Assembly (NCBI GenBank): GCA_046290225.1
Contig: JBKAGE010000038.1
Span: forward strand, 224,001-288,000
DNA from: Bradymonadia bacterium
GTDB taxonomy: Bacteria; Myxococcota_A; Bradymonadia; UBA7976; UBA1532
Reading direction: 5' to 3'
DNA length: 64,000 bases
The notes beneath the pieces are model-generated. The model saw nothing but the letters and a program-made list of their open reading frames with translations, had not been told where the DNA came from and did no database searches. Position 1 is the stretch's first letter. Every line of letters begins with the position of its first letter. Positions 24,013-63,018 of the stretch are shown one piece after another. The translations under genes were made by a program, and so were the position numbers.

Positions 24013-24831
24013 GTGGATCAGATGCTCAACGCCGCCTTCCTCGGCTTGATCCAAGCCCTCACAGAGTTCCTGCCGGTCTCCTCGAGCGGACACCTCGTCC
24101 TGGGCAAGGTGATCCTCGGCATGGAGCTCGATGGCGGCGCCGCCACTGAGGTGGCCATGCACTTCGGCACCCTCATGAGCGTGATCGTGTTGTTCTTCAA
24201 GGACATCATTCGCCTGTTCAAGGCTACGGCGCGCCTCATGGGCAATCTGGGCCGGGTACGCTACCTCTGGCACGAAGATCCCGACATCAGACTGCTGGTG
24301 GCCATCATCATCGGCTGTATTCCCGCTGGAGTGATTGGGCTGCTGTTCAAAGATCAGCTCGAGAGCGCCTTCAATGATCCCCGAGGGGTCTGCGTGGCGC
24401 TGTTGTGCACAGGTGGTTTGTTGCTCACCACGGTGATGGCCCCCGTGGGCAAAGAGTCGATCCGCCCCCTCGACGCGCTGATCATCGGTGTGGCTCAGGC
24501 TGTGGCCATCATCCCCGGCATCTCCCGCTCAGGCTCGACGATCTCCGTGGCCCAGTTTCTGGGGATAGAGCGCGTGGATGCGGCCCGCTTCAGCTTCTTG
24601 ATGAGCTTGCCGGTCATCGCAGGGGCCACCTTGCTCAAGGGCAAGGACATGCTGGCCAACCCGCCCCCTGCAGATACGCTCGCTGCCCTCGGCGTCGGCG
24701 CGGCGGTCTCTTTCGTGGTGGGCCTCGGGGCGTTGTGGGCCCTGATGCAGCTGGTGCGCCAGGGCAAGTTCTCCATCTTCGGCTGGTACTGCCTCACCCT
24801 CGGTGTGGTGGGCTTGATCATGCTGCAGTAG
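24013..24831 (+). CDS. uppP: undecaprenyl-diphosphatase
   Basis: LGLIQALTEFLPVSSSGHL, HFGT, PGISRSGSTI, AARFSFLMSLP. Confidence 0.97.
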   Translation: MDQMLNAAFLGLIQALTEFLPVSSSGHLVLGKVILGMELDGGAATEVAMHFGTLMSVIVLFFKDIIRLFKATARLMGNLGRVRYLWHEDPDIRLLVAIIIGCIPAGVIGLLFKDQLESAFNDPRGVCVALLCTGGLLLTTVMAPVGKESIRPLDALIIGVAQAVAIIPGISRSGSTISVAQFLGIERVDAARFSFLMSLPVIAGATLLKGKDMLANPPPADTLAALGVGAAVSFVVGLGALWALMQLVRQGKFSIFGWYCLTLGVVGLIMLQ

Positions 24832-25200
24832 AGCGGACGGCCGTGCCTTTGGCACCGCCTGTAGCGGACGGCCGTGCTGCGCACCGCCTGTAGCGGACGC
24901 CGAGTCTGCCTTCGGCAGCCTGAGCTGTAGCTTTTTTAGAGAGTTATGGTGTGCTTGGTGGGCTTCTCGACCCAGGTTGGGGCTTACGCCGGAACTGGTA
25001 CGTCAACAGCCACTGCACTGCGCGGTAGATGAGCCCACGCCCCCAAAGTGATCTTCAAAAAGCTACAGGGAATTTGCCGTAGGCAAATGAGCGTCCGCTA
25101 CAGCTCTCGCCGAAGGCGAGGCGTCCGCTACAGACGCAGCGCAGCGAAAGCTTTTGCTGGGTCGTCCGCTACAGGCGGCCCGAAGGGCGGCCGTCCGCTC
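24829..25200. repeat. symmetric inverted-repeat ladder (REP/MITE-like) of CTGTAGCGGACG motifs separated by triloop hairpins
   Basis: Left arm: GAGCGGACG, 2x CTGTAGCGGACG, CTGTAGCTTTTT. Right arm: AAAAAGCTACAG, 3x CGTCCGCTACAG, CGTCCGCTC. Confidence 0.9.
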
Positions 25201-25288: not shown

Positions 25289-26827
25289 ATGTCTTCGGCG
25301 CCTTCGTTCCACTCCGCCTATGGTCGCCTCTGTCCGCGTTGCCGACGCCCCGCAGCGGGCGGCCGCCGCTGCCCCTATGACGGCGCGTTCTACGTCGAGC
25401 GGCAGGCTCTGGAGGCCGTGGGCCGTGACAGCCACCTCGGGGCCCTCGTGGGGGATCGCTATGTGGTCGAAGCCCGGTTGGGCTTTGGTGGCATGGGCAG
25501 CGTCTACCGCGGCCGGGACGAAGAATCTGGCGAGGCGGTCGCCGTGAAGTTCCTGCGGGAAGAGTACGCGAGTCACCCTGCCATTCGGCAGCGCTTCATC
25601 CGCGAGGCTGAGGCTGGGGCCTCTCTGGTACACCCCAACGTGGTGAGCCTGCTCGACTTCGGCGTCGACTCGAGTCACACCCTCTACATCGTCATGGATC
25701 TCGTCGAGGGGCACACGCTCAGAGATGAAGTGAACAAGAGCGGGGCCTTCAGTGTGGCCCACGCCCGCGATCTGGCGGTTCAGATCCTGAGAGGGCTCCA
25801 GGCTGCCCACGACGTCGGACTGGTGCATCGCGATCTCAAGCACGACAACATCATGCTCGTCGGCGATCGCAGCCGCCTGCAGGTGCGCCTGCTCGACTTC
25901 GGCGTCGTGAAAATCAACGGCCGCCCCAATGACGAGACCCTCGGCCTGGTGACGCAGACCGGGGTGCTGGTGGGCTCGCCGAGCTACATGAGCCCCGAGC
26001 AGGTTCGAGGCCTCGAGGTCGGGCCCCCTGCCGACGTCTATGCGCTGGCGGTGGTGCTCTATGAAGCCATGACCGCCCGCAGGCTCTTCAAGGTGGACAG
26101 CTACGATTCGCTGCTCCGTGAGGGTGCTCAGCGCGAGGCCCCACCGTTGACCCACACCGCTGAGGGAGAGGCGGTACCGCCGGCCTTCAACCGCATCATC
26201 CAGCGGGCCCTGGCCCATGATCCTGCGGAGCGTTTCCCTGATGCCCGCACCATGCGCCTCGCCCTGGAGCAAATGGATCCGAGGCCCCCAGGCCTGCCCA
26301 CGGAGCTGCTTGCCGATGCACCGGCGACGCCGCTGCCCACGCCTGTGCCGGCGGGATCTTTCCTCGAACCCACGCCCCTGCCTGATGTGCACCACGCCAT
26401 CCACGACACGATGCCGTCCACTCGGGCGCTCACCCGGACGCTGCTCGAAAATGCGAAGGCTGCCCAGGAAGCGCAGACTGCCGTTCGGACTGGCGCGCAG
26501 AGCCAAGCCCCGGACGCCCAAAGTGATCCGGACGCCTCCATCATGAAGGCCTTGTCGACGGATGCATCGCCCATCGCCCTGGACGGTACGCCCACTCGAG
26601 TGAACGCTGAGCCATCGAGCCTCGAAGGCGATCCACCTGCGTCAGAAGATCAGTCACCCCAGAATGCGGTGATGTCGAGCCGGCCAGCCCTCACGCCTCA
26701 ACCAAGCCCCGCTGGCGAGGAGGCGCTCCATGTCCCGCGCTCTGGTGGGGCAGTCTGGATGGCCGCCGGGGGTGCTCTGGCTGCCTTCGGGCTGGTGAAG
26801 CTCGGGGCTTTGCTCTTCGGTGGCTGA
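25289..26827 (+). CDS. Ser/Thr protein kinase with an N-terminal Zn-ribbon-like motif and C-terminal TM
   Basis: CPRC...CPYDG, LGFGGMGSVY, HRDLKHDN, DFG, GSPSYMSPE. Confidence 0.94.
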   Translation: MSSAPSFHSAYGRLCPRCRRPAAGGRRCPYDGAFYVERQALEAVGRDSHLGALVGDRYVVEARLGFGGMGSVYRGRDEESGEAVAVKFLREEYASHPAIRQRFIREAEAGASLVHPNVVSLLDFGVDSSHTLYIVMDLVEGHTLRDEVNKSGAFSVAHARDLAVQILRGLQAAHDVGLVHRDLKHDNIMLVGDRSRLQVRLLDFGVVKINGRPNDETLGLVTQTGVLVGSPSYMSPEQVRGLEVGPPADVYALAVVLYEAMTARRLFKVDSYDSLLREGAQREAPPLTHTAEGEAVPPAFNRIIQRALAHDPAERFPDARTMRLALEQMDPRPPGLPTELLADAPATPLPTPVPAGSFLEPTPLPDVHHAIHDTMPSTRALTRTLLENAKAAQEAQTAVRTGAQSQAPDAQSDPDASIMKALSTDASPIALDGTPTRVNAEPSSLEGDPPASEDQSPQNAVMSSRPALTPQPSPAGEEALHVPRSGGAVWMAAGGALAAFGLVKLGALLFGG

Positions 26828-27355: not shown

Positions 27356-29095
27356 TCAGGCGAGGCGCTCTTTCACCACACCCCAGGTCAGGTCGAAGCG
27401 CGCGAGATACTTGCGCAGCCGATCGGCGTCGTTCACTTGCTTCCGTTGAGTGCGGGAGTAAGCGAACAGCAAGCGTCCTGCCTCTGACAGCGTCTTGCAC
27501 TGACGACACACCGAGAGCACATCGAGCAACTGCACCCGGTCGAAGCGATCGAGTTGCTCCACCGCTTCTTTGCCGAGCACCTGCTCCAGCATGGCCTGTT
27601 GTGGCGCAGACTGAGCCTCTTCTGGGGTGCGCCAGGCCACGTTGAGGCGGCCGATCTCTTCTTCGACCTCCACCTCGGTGATGCGGCCCCCGTGGGCGAG
27701 GGTGGCCATGCGGGTGACCGCGGCGTTGAGATCGCGAAAGTTTGCCCGCCAGCGACCCTCAGGGCCTGCTCCGAATCGCAAGAACCTCGCTCGAGCCTCA
27801 GCGTTGAAGCGCACCTGCGCGCCGGTCCGCTCCGCGAAGCGATCGAGCTCGTAGTCGAGGTTGGGCGCCAGATCTTCGATGCGGGCCTTCAGCCCCGGCA
27901 GCTCGAAGGTCCAGAGGTTGATCCGGGCGAGCAGGTCTTCGCGGAACGTGCCCTTCATCACCGCCGCTCGCAGGTCGCGGTTGGTGCCGGCGATGAGCTG
28001 GAACCGGCTGAAGGCCGGGCGATCGGCCCCAACGGGGAGAAACTCGCCGCTCTCCAGAGCCCGCAGCAACATCGCCTGCTCATCGAGGCCCAGCTCGCCG
28101 ATCTCGTCGAGGAACAGCACCCCCTGATCAGCGGTCTTCAGCAGACCAGGCCTTGGGTTCTGAGCCCCGGTGAAGGCGCCTTTGATATGGCCGAACAGGG
28201 TGGACTGCGCCGTGTCGCCCCGGAGGGTGGCGCAGTTCACCTCGACATATTCTCCCGTAACCTGATTACGGCTCTTCTTGAGGGCGAAGATGCGTCGGGC
28301 CAACTGGGTCTTGCCAGCGCCCGTGGGCCCCGTGAGCAGCATCGGGGCCTCGCTCACGATGGCCACGCGCTCGATCTGCTCGATCATGTGGTTGAAGGCG
28401 GCGTTGCGGGTCTCGATGCCTGCCTTCAAGAACGACAGCGCCTCTTGTTGCTCGACGACGAAGCGCTGGGCGATGGCGTCGTACCGCGACAAGTCGAGAT
28501 CGATCACCCGCCAGCGGCCGATCCGCGCCCCGCGGCCGGGAGGCGACGTCTGCAGCAGCCGCCCGGGCAGGTGCCTGGACTCCGTGAGCAGGAACGTACA
28601 GATCTGCGCCACGTGGCTGCCGGTGGTGATGTGGATCAGGTAATCCTCAGCCTCAGGGTCGAAGTCGTAGCTGCGCGTAAAGCCGTAGAGTGCGTCGTAG
28701 ACCTCTTCGAAATCCCACGGATCGGAGAACGTCACCGGGTGCAGGTTCACCGTGGTCTCCGGCGACACACGCCCCAGGTCCTCAATGACCTCGTCGGCGA
28801 TGGACCGGAATTGGGGCGAGTGCAGCAGCTCGAACCGATCGACGATCAAATCAGCGTGCTGACAGATCGACACAGAGGGCCGCCATCGCTGCCATCGCTC
28901 GGGGTTGCCGCCGGCGTCGAGTTTGGGCCCCAGCAGACCGATGACCACCACGGGGCGCCCGGGGCGTGGGCGCCAGTGCCATCCCTGCGACGCCTTCCCT
29001 CTGGTGTGTGTCTGTTGCAGTGATTCTCGCTGTGACGCTTGAGGGCTCTCCCCTCGGGCGATCCCCCCGCGTGAGGGCGCCAATTCTCGCTCCAT
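27356..29095 (-). CDS. rtcR: sigma54-dependent RNA-repair transcriptional activator (CARF + AAA+)
   Basis: RWQRWRPSVSICQH, DPWDFEEVY, HITTGSHVAQIC, GPTGAGKT, GAFTGA, NDADRLRKYLARF. Start is either ATG 29095 (RBS AAGGTGGAG) or GTG 28951. Confidence 0.95.
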   Translation of the reverse strand: MERELAPSRGGIARGESPQASQRESLQQTHTRGKASQGWHWRPRPGRPVVVIGLLGPKLDAGGNPERWQRWRPSVSICQHADLIVDRFELLHSPQFRSIADEVIEDLGRVSPETTVNLHPVTFSDPWDFEEVYDALYGFTRSYDFDPEAEDYLIHITTGSHVAQICTFLLTESRHLPGRLLQTSPPGRGARIGRWRVIDLDLSRYDAIAQRFVVEQQEALSFLKAGIETRNAAFNHMIEQIERVAIVSEAPMLLTGPTGAGKTQLARRIFALKKSRNQVTGEYVEVNCATLRGDTAQSTLFGHIKGAFTGAQNPRPGLLKTADQGVLFLDEIGELGLDEQAMLLRALESGEFLPVGADRPAFSRFQLIAGTNRDLRAAVMKGTFREDLLARINLWTFELPGLKARIEDLAPNLDYELDRFAERTGAQVRFNAEARARFLRFGAGPEGRWRANFRDLNAAVTRMATLAHGGRITEVEVEEEIGRLNVAWRTPEEAQSAPQQAMLEQVLGKEAVEQLDRFDRVQLLDVLSVCRQCKTLSEAGRLLFAYSRTQRKQVNDADRLRKYLARFDLTWGVVKERLA

Positions 29096-29107
29096 CTGGG
29101 CTCCACC

Positions 29108-29124
29108 TTGGGGTATATCGTGCA
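29108..29124 (+). promoter_or_regulatory. candidate sigma54 (-24/-12) promoter for rtcA
   Basis: TTGGGGTATATCGTGCA gives GG-N10-GC, 28 bp upstream of the rtcA ATG and beside divergent rtcR. It lacks the consensus CAC after GG. Confidence 0.4.
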
Positions 29125-29151
29125 CAGCACGCAGTAGCACGGAGACCGGAC

Positions 29152-30222
29152 ATGGTCGAGCCTGAGATGATCGAGATCAACGGAGCCGAGGGTGAAGGCG
29201 GAGGCCAGATCATTCGCACGGCGCTGAGCCTTTCGCTGCTCACCGGGCGCCCCTTCACCATCGAGCAGGTGCGGGGCGGGCGCCGCAAACCCGGGCTGCT
29301 GCGACAACACCTCACCGCAGTCCGCGCCGCTGCCCGCATCGGCGCCGCCGAGGTGGAGGGTGATCACCTCGGGAGCGATCGGCTGGTGTTCCGACCCCAG
29401 GGGCTCGTTGCCGGGCACTACGATCTGGCCATCGGCAGCGCCGGCAGCGCCAACCTCGTGGTGCAGACCCTGCTCCCTGCCCTGCTCAACGCGGATCAGC
29501 CCTCTCACGTGTCGGTCTCCGGAGGCACTCACAACCCGGCCTCTCCGAGCTTCGACTACCTCGACCAGGTGTTCTTGCCTGTGGTGGAGCGGATGGGCGC
29601 TCAGGTGAAACGCACGATGCACGCCCCGGGCTTCTTCCCTGCTGGGGGCGGCCGGATCAGCTTCGACATCACCCCGGTGCCGCTGTCGCCCATCACCCTC
29701 GACACCCGACCCGAAGACATCACGTGGCACGCCCAGGTGCTCATCGCTCACCTGCCTGCCCACGTGGCCGAGCGCGAGGTGAGCCAGCTCGCCGAGGGCA
29801 TGAGCCTGCGGCCCGAGGCCGTGCAGGTGGTCAACCTCGACGCGCAGTCCGCCGGGCCGGGCAACGCGGTGATCCTCACCGCCAGGGCCGGCGACGTGGT
29901 GGAGCAGTTCACCGGCTTCGGGCGCAAGGGCGTCAAGGCCGAGGTGGTCGTCGACGAGGTGGTGGCCGAGGCCCGGGCGTGGCTCGGCAGCGGCGCACCC
30001 GTGGGGCCTCACCTCGCCGATCAGCTCATCTTGCCCATGGCCCTCGCAGGTGGAGGGCGGTTCGTCACCCAGGCCCCCCAGCAGCACACCCTCACCCAGG
30101 TGAAGACTGTGGGCCGGTTCCTCGACATCGCCATCGACCTGCAGCACAACGACGACGAGACGGCCGGGCGCACCTGGACCCTCACCGTCGGCGACGGTCG
30201 CGCTCTCGGAGATGCCTCTTGA
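29152..30222 (+). CDS. rtcA: RNA 3'-terminal phosphate cyclase
   Basis: GEGGGQIIRTALSLS, RRKPGLLRQHLTAV, GGTHNP, GFFPAGGG, HLADQLILPMALAG. Confidence 0.97.
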   Translation: MVEPEMIEINGAEGEGGGQIIRTALSLSLLTGRPFTIEQVRGGRRKPGLLRQHLTAVRAAARIGAAEVEGDHLGSDRLVFRPQGLVAGHYDLAIGSAGSANLVVQTLLPALLNADQPSHVSVSGGTHNPASPSFDYLDQVFLPVVERMGAQVKRTMHAPGFFPAGGGRISFDITPVPLSPITLDTRPEDITWHAQVLIAHLPAHVAEREVSQLAEGMSLRPEAVQVVNLDAQSAGPGNAVILTARAGDVVEQFTGFGRKGVKAEVVVDEVVAEARAWLGSGAPVGPHLADQLILPMALAGGGRFVTQAPQQHTLTQVKTVGRFLDIAIDLQHNDDETAGRTWTLTVGDGRALGDAS

Positions 30223-32749: not shown

Positions 32750-33160
32750 AGAGAGTTTCGGGCACGGGCACGGGCACGGGCACGGGCACGAGTTGATTCG
32801 GCTGTGGACAGTGCAGCCTGAGGCTGCATGTCTTGGAGCGAGTGTAGGCCTGCGTAGCCGGCCGGAGGGAGCGGAAAGACACCCGGAGGGCTGTCCACTG
32901 GTCAACCTGACCCGTAACCCTACATGACTCCGCTCGTGGGTGTGTGATGGTGGAGGCTCTACTCAGCCCCATGTGTCTCTCATTGGAGGCTTTGTCCTCC
33001 ATACACCCCAAGACTTGAAACCTCAGGTCGTTCTGAAGCGCACCATCTCAGCCTCAATGACAACCATCGCCCTGAACCCAGGATGGGTCACGGGTCCACA
33101 CCCGAATCAACTCGTGCCCGTGCCCGTGCCCGTGCCCGTGCCCGAAACTCTCTTTTCCAG
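32747..33160 (+). mobile_element. non-coding (GGGCAC)n inverted-repeat element, copy 1 (MITE-like or structured RNA)
   Basis: 60-bp inverted arms at 32750-32809 and 33094-33153 (one mismatch), each with five hexamers; core homologous to 62710-63018. Confidence 0.8.
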
Positions 33161-62709: not shown

Positions 62710-63018
62710 TTGGTAAGAGAGAGTTTGTCGGGCACGGGCACGGGCACGGGCACGAGTTGATACATATTCTGACCCGTGGCCCTTCCTGAACTCAGGGCGA
62801 AGGTTACAACTGAAGCTGAGATGATGTGTTGTTGAACGACCTGAGAGTTCAGGTCTTGGGGTGTATGGAGGCCAAAAGTCGCACTGAGCAAAGCGTGGGG
62901 CTGGATGAAGGCTCCACCATCACAAACCCATGAGCGGAGTCATATAGGACAACGGGTCCAGATATGTATCAACTCGTGCCCGTGCCCGTGCCCGTGCCCG
63001 TGCCCGAAAAACTCTCTA
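62710..63018 (-). mobile_element. non-coding (GGGCAC)n inverted-repeat element, copy 2
   Basis: Arms with 4 and 5 hexamers plus GAGTTGATACATAT/ATATGTATCAACTC; core homologous to 32747-33160 in reverse orientation. Confidence 0.8.

Follow-up and report, generated by a model that had tools for sequence, protein, structure and literature searches.

The closest described relatives of the repeat studied here are the GTAG REPs and BIMEs. According to PMC3733652 and PMC8266576, they combine a GTAG foot with GC-rich imperfect hairpins and a conserved mismatch, have short T-Y loops on the GTAG strand, lie outside genes at gene 3' ends, and occur as several families per genome in mosaic higher-order arrays, without target duplication. 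These features recur in the repeat family of this study, which we call family A, where the GTAG foot is seen in the internal units. It departs from the described GTAG REPs in its head-to-tail units, which lack the 3' half of the basal stem, in module classes that keep a fixed positional order, in a 130-bp core common to a second arm type, in termini that read TGAG or GGAG more often than GTAG, and in having no RAYT. As in REPs, defined as many-copy extragenic imperfect palindromes of 20–40 bp, numerous such units were present (17 hairpins of 18–35 bp; 197 linkers). Since no RAYT was found and most termini are not GTAG, we did not file family A as a member of the REP/BIME class. For the 24 described GTAG families, four supplements of PMC3733652 gave no match to it.

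Other described systems resemble family A in part. In REPINs (PMC3116915), two inverted ends and a spacer likewise form a hairpin, and singlets resemble doublet remnants; family A differs in having two to five different hairpins per arm, a length of ~400 bp and copies that are all unique, with no RAYT-adjacent cluster. Its 27 paired inner ends suggest an inverted doublet with spacer as the replicating unit, and neither excision nor an empty site was seen. TIRtrons, TIR repeats and MITEs (PMC3733652) have long inverted ends, are dispersed and lack coding capacity, as does family A, which unlike them shows no target duplication, no autonomous IS or flanked transposase, and arms that are modular and shuffled. 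The intervening sequence of the Coxiella 23S rRNA gene with its S23p gene (PMC4990558) places a small four-helix-bundle gene in the loop between inverted arms, without a transposase, as do two further families of the present genome, B and G. Location in an rRNA helix and excision by RNase III define such intervening sequences. Family A, in contrast, lies between protein genes, has ladders of GTAG hairpins instead of a plain stem, and encloses no gene; its ladders also differ from the 6–8-base tandem arrays that form the arms of other four-helix-bundle cassettes. According to the same source, the S23p/IVP family has no known catalytic activity. Finally, the targets of DGRs employ GRNA-loop hairpins (PMC3240598).

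Family A bears on how small palindromic repeats originate and spread without a RAYT, and on the S23p/IVP proteins, which have no known function. A literature search, mostly of papers outside subscription, returned no description of family A or of a link between REP-like repeats and PF05635. Family A is a real, apparently undescribed variant of the REP/BIME type with strict module order, and it ties, indirectly but testably, to an orphan protein family. The family as described is secure, the mechanism is not.

Architecture of the element downstream of uppP

The window (the whole 64,000-nucleotide stretch that was analysed) contains a family A element, and the kinase gene that follows begins 89 nt past it (Table 1).

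Table 1. Parts of the family A element and its neighbours, in window positions.
Feature	Position	Strand	Remark
Whole family A element: left arm, core, right arm (368 bp)	24832..25199	.	One of 28 core-bearing loci
uppP native TAG stop	24829..24831	+	Immediately abuts the element; 12 codons past GWYC
Left terminal half-linker AGCGGAC	24832..24838	+	
Outer module O1: GTGCC-TTT-GGCAC	24839..24859	+	C.C mismatch and basal stem
Constant linker TGTAGCGGAC	24860..24869	+	GTAG foot
Outer module O2: GTGC-TGC-GCAC	24870..24888	+	
Constant linker, left arm, second	24889..24898	+	
Innermost left module L: CTGCC-TTC-GGCAG	24899..24925	+	
Non-coding core	24931..25062	+	Homologous to the family B core; without covarying structure
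Box AGAGAGTT	24938..24945	+	Common to families A, B and G and the gene-bearing B copy
Core box GGGGCTTACGCC	24979..24990	+	Conserved in A and B; forms the mini-hairpin GGC-TTAC-GCC, whose loop reads GTAA on the opposite strand
Core box ending in GCGGTAG	25020..25028	+	Conserved in A and B
Box AGATCACTT	25046..25054	-	Mirror-image counterpart of the left box
Innermost right module R: ATTTGCC-GTA-GGCAAAT	25068..25092	-	
Constant linker, right arm, innermost	25093..25102	-	
Inner module I1: CTCGCC-GAA-GGCGAG	25103..25122	-	
Constant linker, right arm, middle	25123..25132	-	
Outer module O4: imperfect stem, C-GAAA-G loop	25133..25163	-	
Constant linker, right arm, outermost	25164..25173	-	
Outer module O3: GCCC-GAA-GGGC	25174..25192	-	14-mers recur in family B arms
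Right terminal half-linker	25193..25199	-	
Ser/Thr kinase gene, downstream neighbour outside the element	25289..26827	+	Start from the analysis's own gene caller

A sequence-only reading of the window had described a symmetric ladder of 12-bp motifs and hairpins that starts at the uppP stop codon. The quoted motifs and the six perfect hairpins were found where that reading had placed them, and the element does start directly after the stop. In the 19 relatives listed, the uppP stop also lies 10–12 codons after GWYC, so that it stands here at its ancestral place. The left arm carries a truncated AGCGGACG at 24832 and the full CTGTAGCGGACG at 24859 and 24888; the right arm carries CGTCCGCTACAG at 25092, 25122 and 25163 and a terminal GTCCGCT that ends at 25199, and the core bounds CTGTAGCTTTTT and AAAAAGCTACAG are spaced by 120 nt. 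The 12-bp motif matches the window exactly five times, where 0.23 matches would be expected when up to one mismatch is tolerated. The C-GNA-G loops that had been pointed out were confirmed for five of the six hairpins (AAA, GCA, GAA, GTA, GAA and GAA on the strand on which the arm is 3'), with C-G closure in all. The symmetry held for the inverted arms but not fully, with three modules on the left and four on the right. The stems quoted for the outer hairpins are present, but each hairpin reaches further: a 3-bp basal stem follows beyond a conserved C.C mismatch.

The element folds strongly (z-scores −12.0 and −10.8), with a long, imperfect rod as the structure predicted at equilibrium. The stacked four-way junctions that had been imagined for it were not supported as its stable fold: across 23 strand folds, calculated with nearest-neighbour DNA parameters and no coaxial stacking term, such a ladder came out 31–83 kcal/mol higher than the rod. 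Nothing in Rfam scored above the gathering threshold; the best match, Guanidine-II (18.3 vs 32 bits, E 0.29), was weak and at chance level. The single RNA run contained one uppP piece only, which is uninformative either way on transcription of the element.

Distribution, arm grammar and core variation of family A

The CTGTAGCGGACG-type 12-mer occurs in 197 exact copies in the 8.58-Mb genome (64% GC), against zero to four in each of 40 relatives, in line with the over-representation that had been expected. Family A comprises 28 core-bearing copies and 17 collapsed single hairpins, besides one-armed and core-less copies. The core profile gave 29 matches at 28 loci, one copy being split by a nested insert, and an independent count of facing inner-end pairs gave 27. 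The 17 stand-alone hairpins (none in the reversed genome) are REP-shaped, which supports the likeness to GTAG REPs noticed earlier. The assembly is 99.4% complete by markers and breaks at repeats, and gene positions across the genome come from our own hexamer-trained caller (6289 genes). Pieces of the element were also present in contigs of three public DNA runs, reaching in run X2 a depth of 78.7 vs ~2.5 for a nearby uppP piece (~30-fold); the family is thus not an assembly artefact.

The element and core pattern was absent from 112 other genomes of the class. The tandem-linker pattern had 179 matches here and at most two apiece across 400 further genomes from the phylum; neither set holds a second genome of the genus. 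Family A is therefore a multi-copy, lineage-restricted family. Pattern scans of GTDB (at least 113 stretches listed), of metagenomes (at least 120 listed) and of viruses (83) gave coding sequence or simple tandem repeats, except for L297 and perhaps L078. On a metagenome contig of another organism, the former (L297:301–560) repeats the CTGTAGCGGACG linker in tandem, but its hairpins are different; it begins on a TAG stop and seems to lie between two convergent genes. The latter, in a Polyangiaceae genome (L078:2987–3050), is a short tandem array of AGCGGACGGTCATCG, which matches the start of module M; this short motif is not over-represented in its own genome.

Read inward, an arm passes from AGCGGAC through two to five hairpin modules, split by TGTAGCGGAC, to TGTAG and the core. 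The innermost module of the 56 core-reaching arms belongs to class L in 32 cases, R in 20, X in three and another class in one, while the second module is of the inner (I) class in 55, the window's left arm being the sole exception. The positions beyond are taken by the middle and outer classes, save for a single module of the inner class. All 56 arms are distinct in sequence and follow 48 class paths; arms of fixed order that all differ imply that copies recombine. Module order is fixed, and module choice is shuffled. An avoidance of identical modules between the two arms, significant at first, was gone after control for left/right preference (p 0.22–0.25).

The stems of the outer modules covary. 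The basal pair is G:C in 54 and A:T in 29, and broken in none; a further pair is T:A in 43, C:G in nine and broken in one, and the C.C mismatch is kept in 82 of 83 outer modules. Such covariation indicates that local hairpins matter at some stage. Among 229 predicted family A loops, read on the arm-3' strand, 142 are GNA, 36 GNNA and 30 AAA, compared with 56 GNA and 56 TNC among 1003 background intergenic triloop hairpins. That 178 of the 229 are GNA or GNNA on one strand points to single-stranded DNA, as the sequence-only reading had suspected. Mini-hairpins of GCGNAGC or GCGNNAGC have exceptional stability as DNA, far above that of the RNA counterpart tested (PMC13037366). The local hairpins may perhaps be fast-folding forms in newly exposed single strands.

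The 25 A cores are all distinct (65–95% identity). With distance between sites, r2 declines from 0.24 to 0.11, and the fraction of site pairs with four gametes climbs from 0.48 to 0.82, counts that recurrent mutation also inflates (0.48 is already reached at ≤5 nt). Their mutation spectrum shows an ordinary transition bias and no adenine-specific mutation of the DGR kind. No covarying or conserved RNA structure was found in the core, nor any replication-strand bias (12/28; 21/42). We also observed an insert of ~160–175 bp with its own inverted ends at two places alone (four ends), each within an A or B core (G000:C78:372745–372904 and C34:360962–361135); similar words were also seen flanking a PF05635 gene of a different genome (L448).

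Termini and insertion sites

The 52 clusters of family A, counting one element that is split into two, lie in 35 convergent, 16 tandem and one divergent gap, whereas 498 of 4019 background gaps are convergent. The 98 outer ends have G at −1 in 84 cases, T at −2 in 55 and T at −3 in 50; AG (CT on the other strand) is found at 88 of them and GTAG at six. GTAG is carried by the internal units, 5 nt from their own stem, and CT follows every linker on the complementary strand.

Many ends overlap stop codons: of the 81 outer ends with a same-strand stop in range, 34 fall between −2 and +1 nt from that stop. At another copy, the native stop is confirmed by a paralogue pair on C40. A stop-codon targeting rule had been suggested on the strength of the uppP end and proved unnecessary. 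The stop itself accounts for 22 of the 44 TG|A ends that face a gene end, vs 61–65% expected from the TGAG words at gene ends. In the genome as a whole, 2337 of the 6289 called genes have TGAG as their stop tetranucleotide. Because that share of TGAG words are stops, a preference for TGAG/TAG words together with avoidance of coding DNA suffices for the overlap. The termini dock to (T)GAG/TAG words located at the 3' ends of genes. The same reading had linked the ladder through this rule to the GGGCAC elements, our family G. The kinship survives in a shared ~9-nt box and a four-helix-bundle link, but is loose only; family G arm seeds lie at a median distance of ~45 nt from stops.

No excess of target duplications of 2–8 nt over shuffles was found in 34 elements, in a test that covers DNA outside the conserved ends and in which a GC duplication within them would be masked. 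When the flanks of convergent junctions were rejoined, the gap had a median of 13 nt, vs 90 nt expected for AGCT sites (a length-weighted baseline that may include missed genes). Gaps this short suggest independent docking of the two ends, with the element taking the place of whatever DNA lay between them. A joint across the element was found neither in the low-coverage contigs of four runs nor as a paralogous empty site in the genome, and the empty uppP–kinase junction that had been looked for in relatives did not turn up, the kinase standing directly after uppP in none of 19; we thus infer mobility from dispersal alone. Transfer of flanking DNA was not above the null (21 pairs vs 14–24).

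The indirect PF05635 link and the explanations weighed

Family B comprises ~55 motif clusters with 45 core matches. Its arms are built from different GTAG hairpins, whose loops keep the polarity seen in family A (GNA in 135 and GNNA in 81 of 315), and its core aligns with that of family A. Arm-free core profiles of the two families detect each other, and 37 of the 38 off-family matches of the A profile fall in B elements or in a hybrid copy that joins an A arm, the core and a B arm (G000:C82:48339–48700). A and B arms have nine 12-mers and three 14-mers in common on the same strand and none on the opposite strand, and A-arm 12- and 14-mers common with family G number zero. The box AG(AGA/ATCA/TCA)STT has 229 genomic matches, 127 of them within families A, B and G. 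Several one-armed A/B copies run into a fourth repeat family (G000:C34:562058, C43:16509, C46:37911, C47:50774 and C81:48133), which suggests hybrids among more than two families. Within the window itself, family G arms occur at 32759–33144, 41081 and 62729–63006 and share the AGAGAGTT/AGATCAGTT box with family A.

A PF05635 search of the genome identified two genes, both inside arms. Family G arms enclose an intact gene (G000:C72:82618–82929), whose protein matches TIGR02436 and has 2GSC as its sole structure match, and full family B arms enclose one with a single frameshift (G000:C77:107176–107687; L402). Gene-less B copies have a ~140-bp core in the gene's place. The gene-bearing B copy carries the box AGAGACTT, also found in eight of the 25 A cores, and its interior shows no homology to the B core beyond the end boxes. 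No four-helix-bundle gene was found within A arms in the genome; the gene-less copies related to a gene-bearing one are in this case related indirectly, via B. Inverted flanks surround eight of 12 PF05635 loci in relatives (E 0.01; one match is both distant and doubtful, and one locus has no upstream flank) and 11 of 15 further loci in other genomes (E 0.001), vs none of 150 control genes. The arms in those other genomes are mostly short tandem arrays, not GTAG ladders. The tie of family A to the four-helix-bundle cassettes is indirect and runs through family B.

Given the homologous A and B cores, the hybrid copy and the PF05635 gene between B arms, we tentatively prefer to read family A as a non-autonomous fold-back repeat with REP-shaped hairpin units, a gene-less sister of the PF05635 cassette class that may move as single-stranded DNA. 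Copies would spread in that form: every module would snap shut as a GNA-capped hairpin, and linkers would pair between the two arms. Both ends would join host DNA at AG (CT on the opposite strand) with no duplication, and insertion would often replace the short DNA between two convergent gene ends. Recombination between identical linkers would then reshuffle arms and core halves, and stand-alone hairpins would arise by deletion between arms. Least certain is that a four-helix-bundle protein would bind or anneal the hairpins in trans, and that a host or HUH-type nuclease would cut. As the protein family has no known catalytic activity, it may instead be a passenger that settles in hairpin loops.

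A bolder version, which we regard as unlikely, holds that REP/BIME-like elements can spread without a transposase by means of an S23p/IVP four-helix-bundle system that acts on GNA-capped single-stranded hairpins and docks at TGAG/TAG, with arms and cargo interchangeable. If it were true, family A would represent a hairpin code of that system, combinatorial and ordered by position; the arms of the system would be hairpin ladders or hexamer arrays, and its cargo would be its own gene or the 130-bp core. In any case, the genome ties a REP-shaped GTAG-hairpin family to S23p/IVP through the core, arm words and the hybrid, and it offers exact substrates for binding and mobility tests (the 10-nt linker, the C.C mismatch, the GNA loops and the 9-nt box). 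Should the PF05635 link reflect hitch-hiking only, family A would still be a well-defined, undescribed BIME-like family of unusually strict order.

Possible, though we rate it as rather unlikely, is that family A consists of REPs, BIMEs or REPINs in the strict sense. A lost or unassembled RAYT-type Y1 HUH transposase would then recognise GTAG and a mismatched single-stranded hairpin, cut between C and T, and move and recombine units, with the four-helix-bundle gene as cargo. TnpA-REP cleaves at CT and requires GTAG and a bulge (PMC8266576), and family A has the GTAG foot, stand-alone hairpins with the conserved mismatch and CT directly after the stem, AG/CT at its outer ends and no target duplication. 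Y1-domain genes are present in 12 of 31 genomes of the order, and many contigs of this assembly stop at unassembled IS-like repeats, so a true transposase may be missing from it. Against this stands the scarcity of GTAG at the outer ends, as the E. coli enzyme tolerates no GTAG change (PMC8266576), and the head-to-tail order of the units, reportedly rare in GTAG families (PMC3733652). The enzyme search also speaks against it. The genome holds no PF01797 or NF047646 match, and the RAYT partner that the sequence-only reading had anticipated was not detected in the assembly, flanked by the motif or otherwise; a six-frame scan for HUH motifs gave unrelated matches only. In tblastn, 29 Y1-locus proteins of relatives gave a single match in the genome, which is confined to residues 1–58 of one long stop-to-stop frame and lies outside the HUH part, and no family A-like ladders were found in the downstream flanks of the relatives' Y1 genes.

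The search for other enzymes gave similar results. No IS110 transposase is assembled, and a search that took in repeated contig ends and arm pairs spaced by at most 3 kb revealed no autonomous IS with A ends; an IS91 search had zero matches, with its control queries also silent. Relatives (L170–L198) carry many long Y1 HUH transposase-like genes with weak PF01797 scores, mostly in frames of ~300–450 aa and up to 18 per genome. An unassembled element of ~10–14 copies sits precisely within GGGCAC arrays (contig ends C29_L, C35_L, C13_R and C17_L), and others, with group II intron-like and IS-like ends, lie inside the fourth repeat family.

We consider it very improbable that family A is a domesticated RNA-level element, a bidirectional terminator or mRNA 3' stabiliser that spread passively by recombination and was kept between convergent genes. 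Its convergent placement fits this, as does the T run that closes each A arm, with two terminator-like matches vs 0.5 expected. The T run lies several bases off the strong stem, however, family B has an A run instead, the loops are mostly GNA triloops of a kind far more stable in DNA than RNA (PMC13037366), and neither the chance-level Rfam match nor a core without covarying fold points to RNA.

A classical MITE is likewise a poor candidate. A DDE transposase would have to recognise the terminal inverted repeat and insert it in a palindromic target such as TGAGCTCA, duplicating the central GC. The inverted termini are indeed precise, unassembled IS-like ends exist, and the flank consensus fades from −1 to −3 as a target preference does. 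No duplication was detected outside the conserved ends, though, and AGC belongs to every internal linker as well; the reconstructed pre-insertion gaps are far shorter than those of AGCT sites, and A arms are absent among the repeated contig ends.

A SINE-like retro-element, copied via RNA by a reverse transcriptase in trans with a DGR-like helper (PF05635 presumably resembles the four-helix-bundle protein Avd), is very improbable: the patchwork copies, the parallel with the GRNA-loop hairpins of DGR targets, two retron-like reverse transcriptase genes and group II intron-like contig ends would suit it, but the transition-biased spectrum free of adenine-specific change, and two equally precise ends with no 5' truncation pattern, do not. 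The two reverse transcriptase genes are adjacent and convergent (G000:C79:178718–180977). Finally, downstream of the element the window holds a divergent gene pair (27356–30222) that looks like RtcR, a sigma-54 activator, and RtcA, an RNA cyclase.
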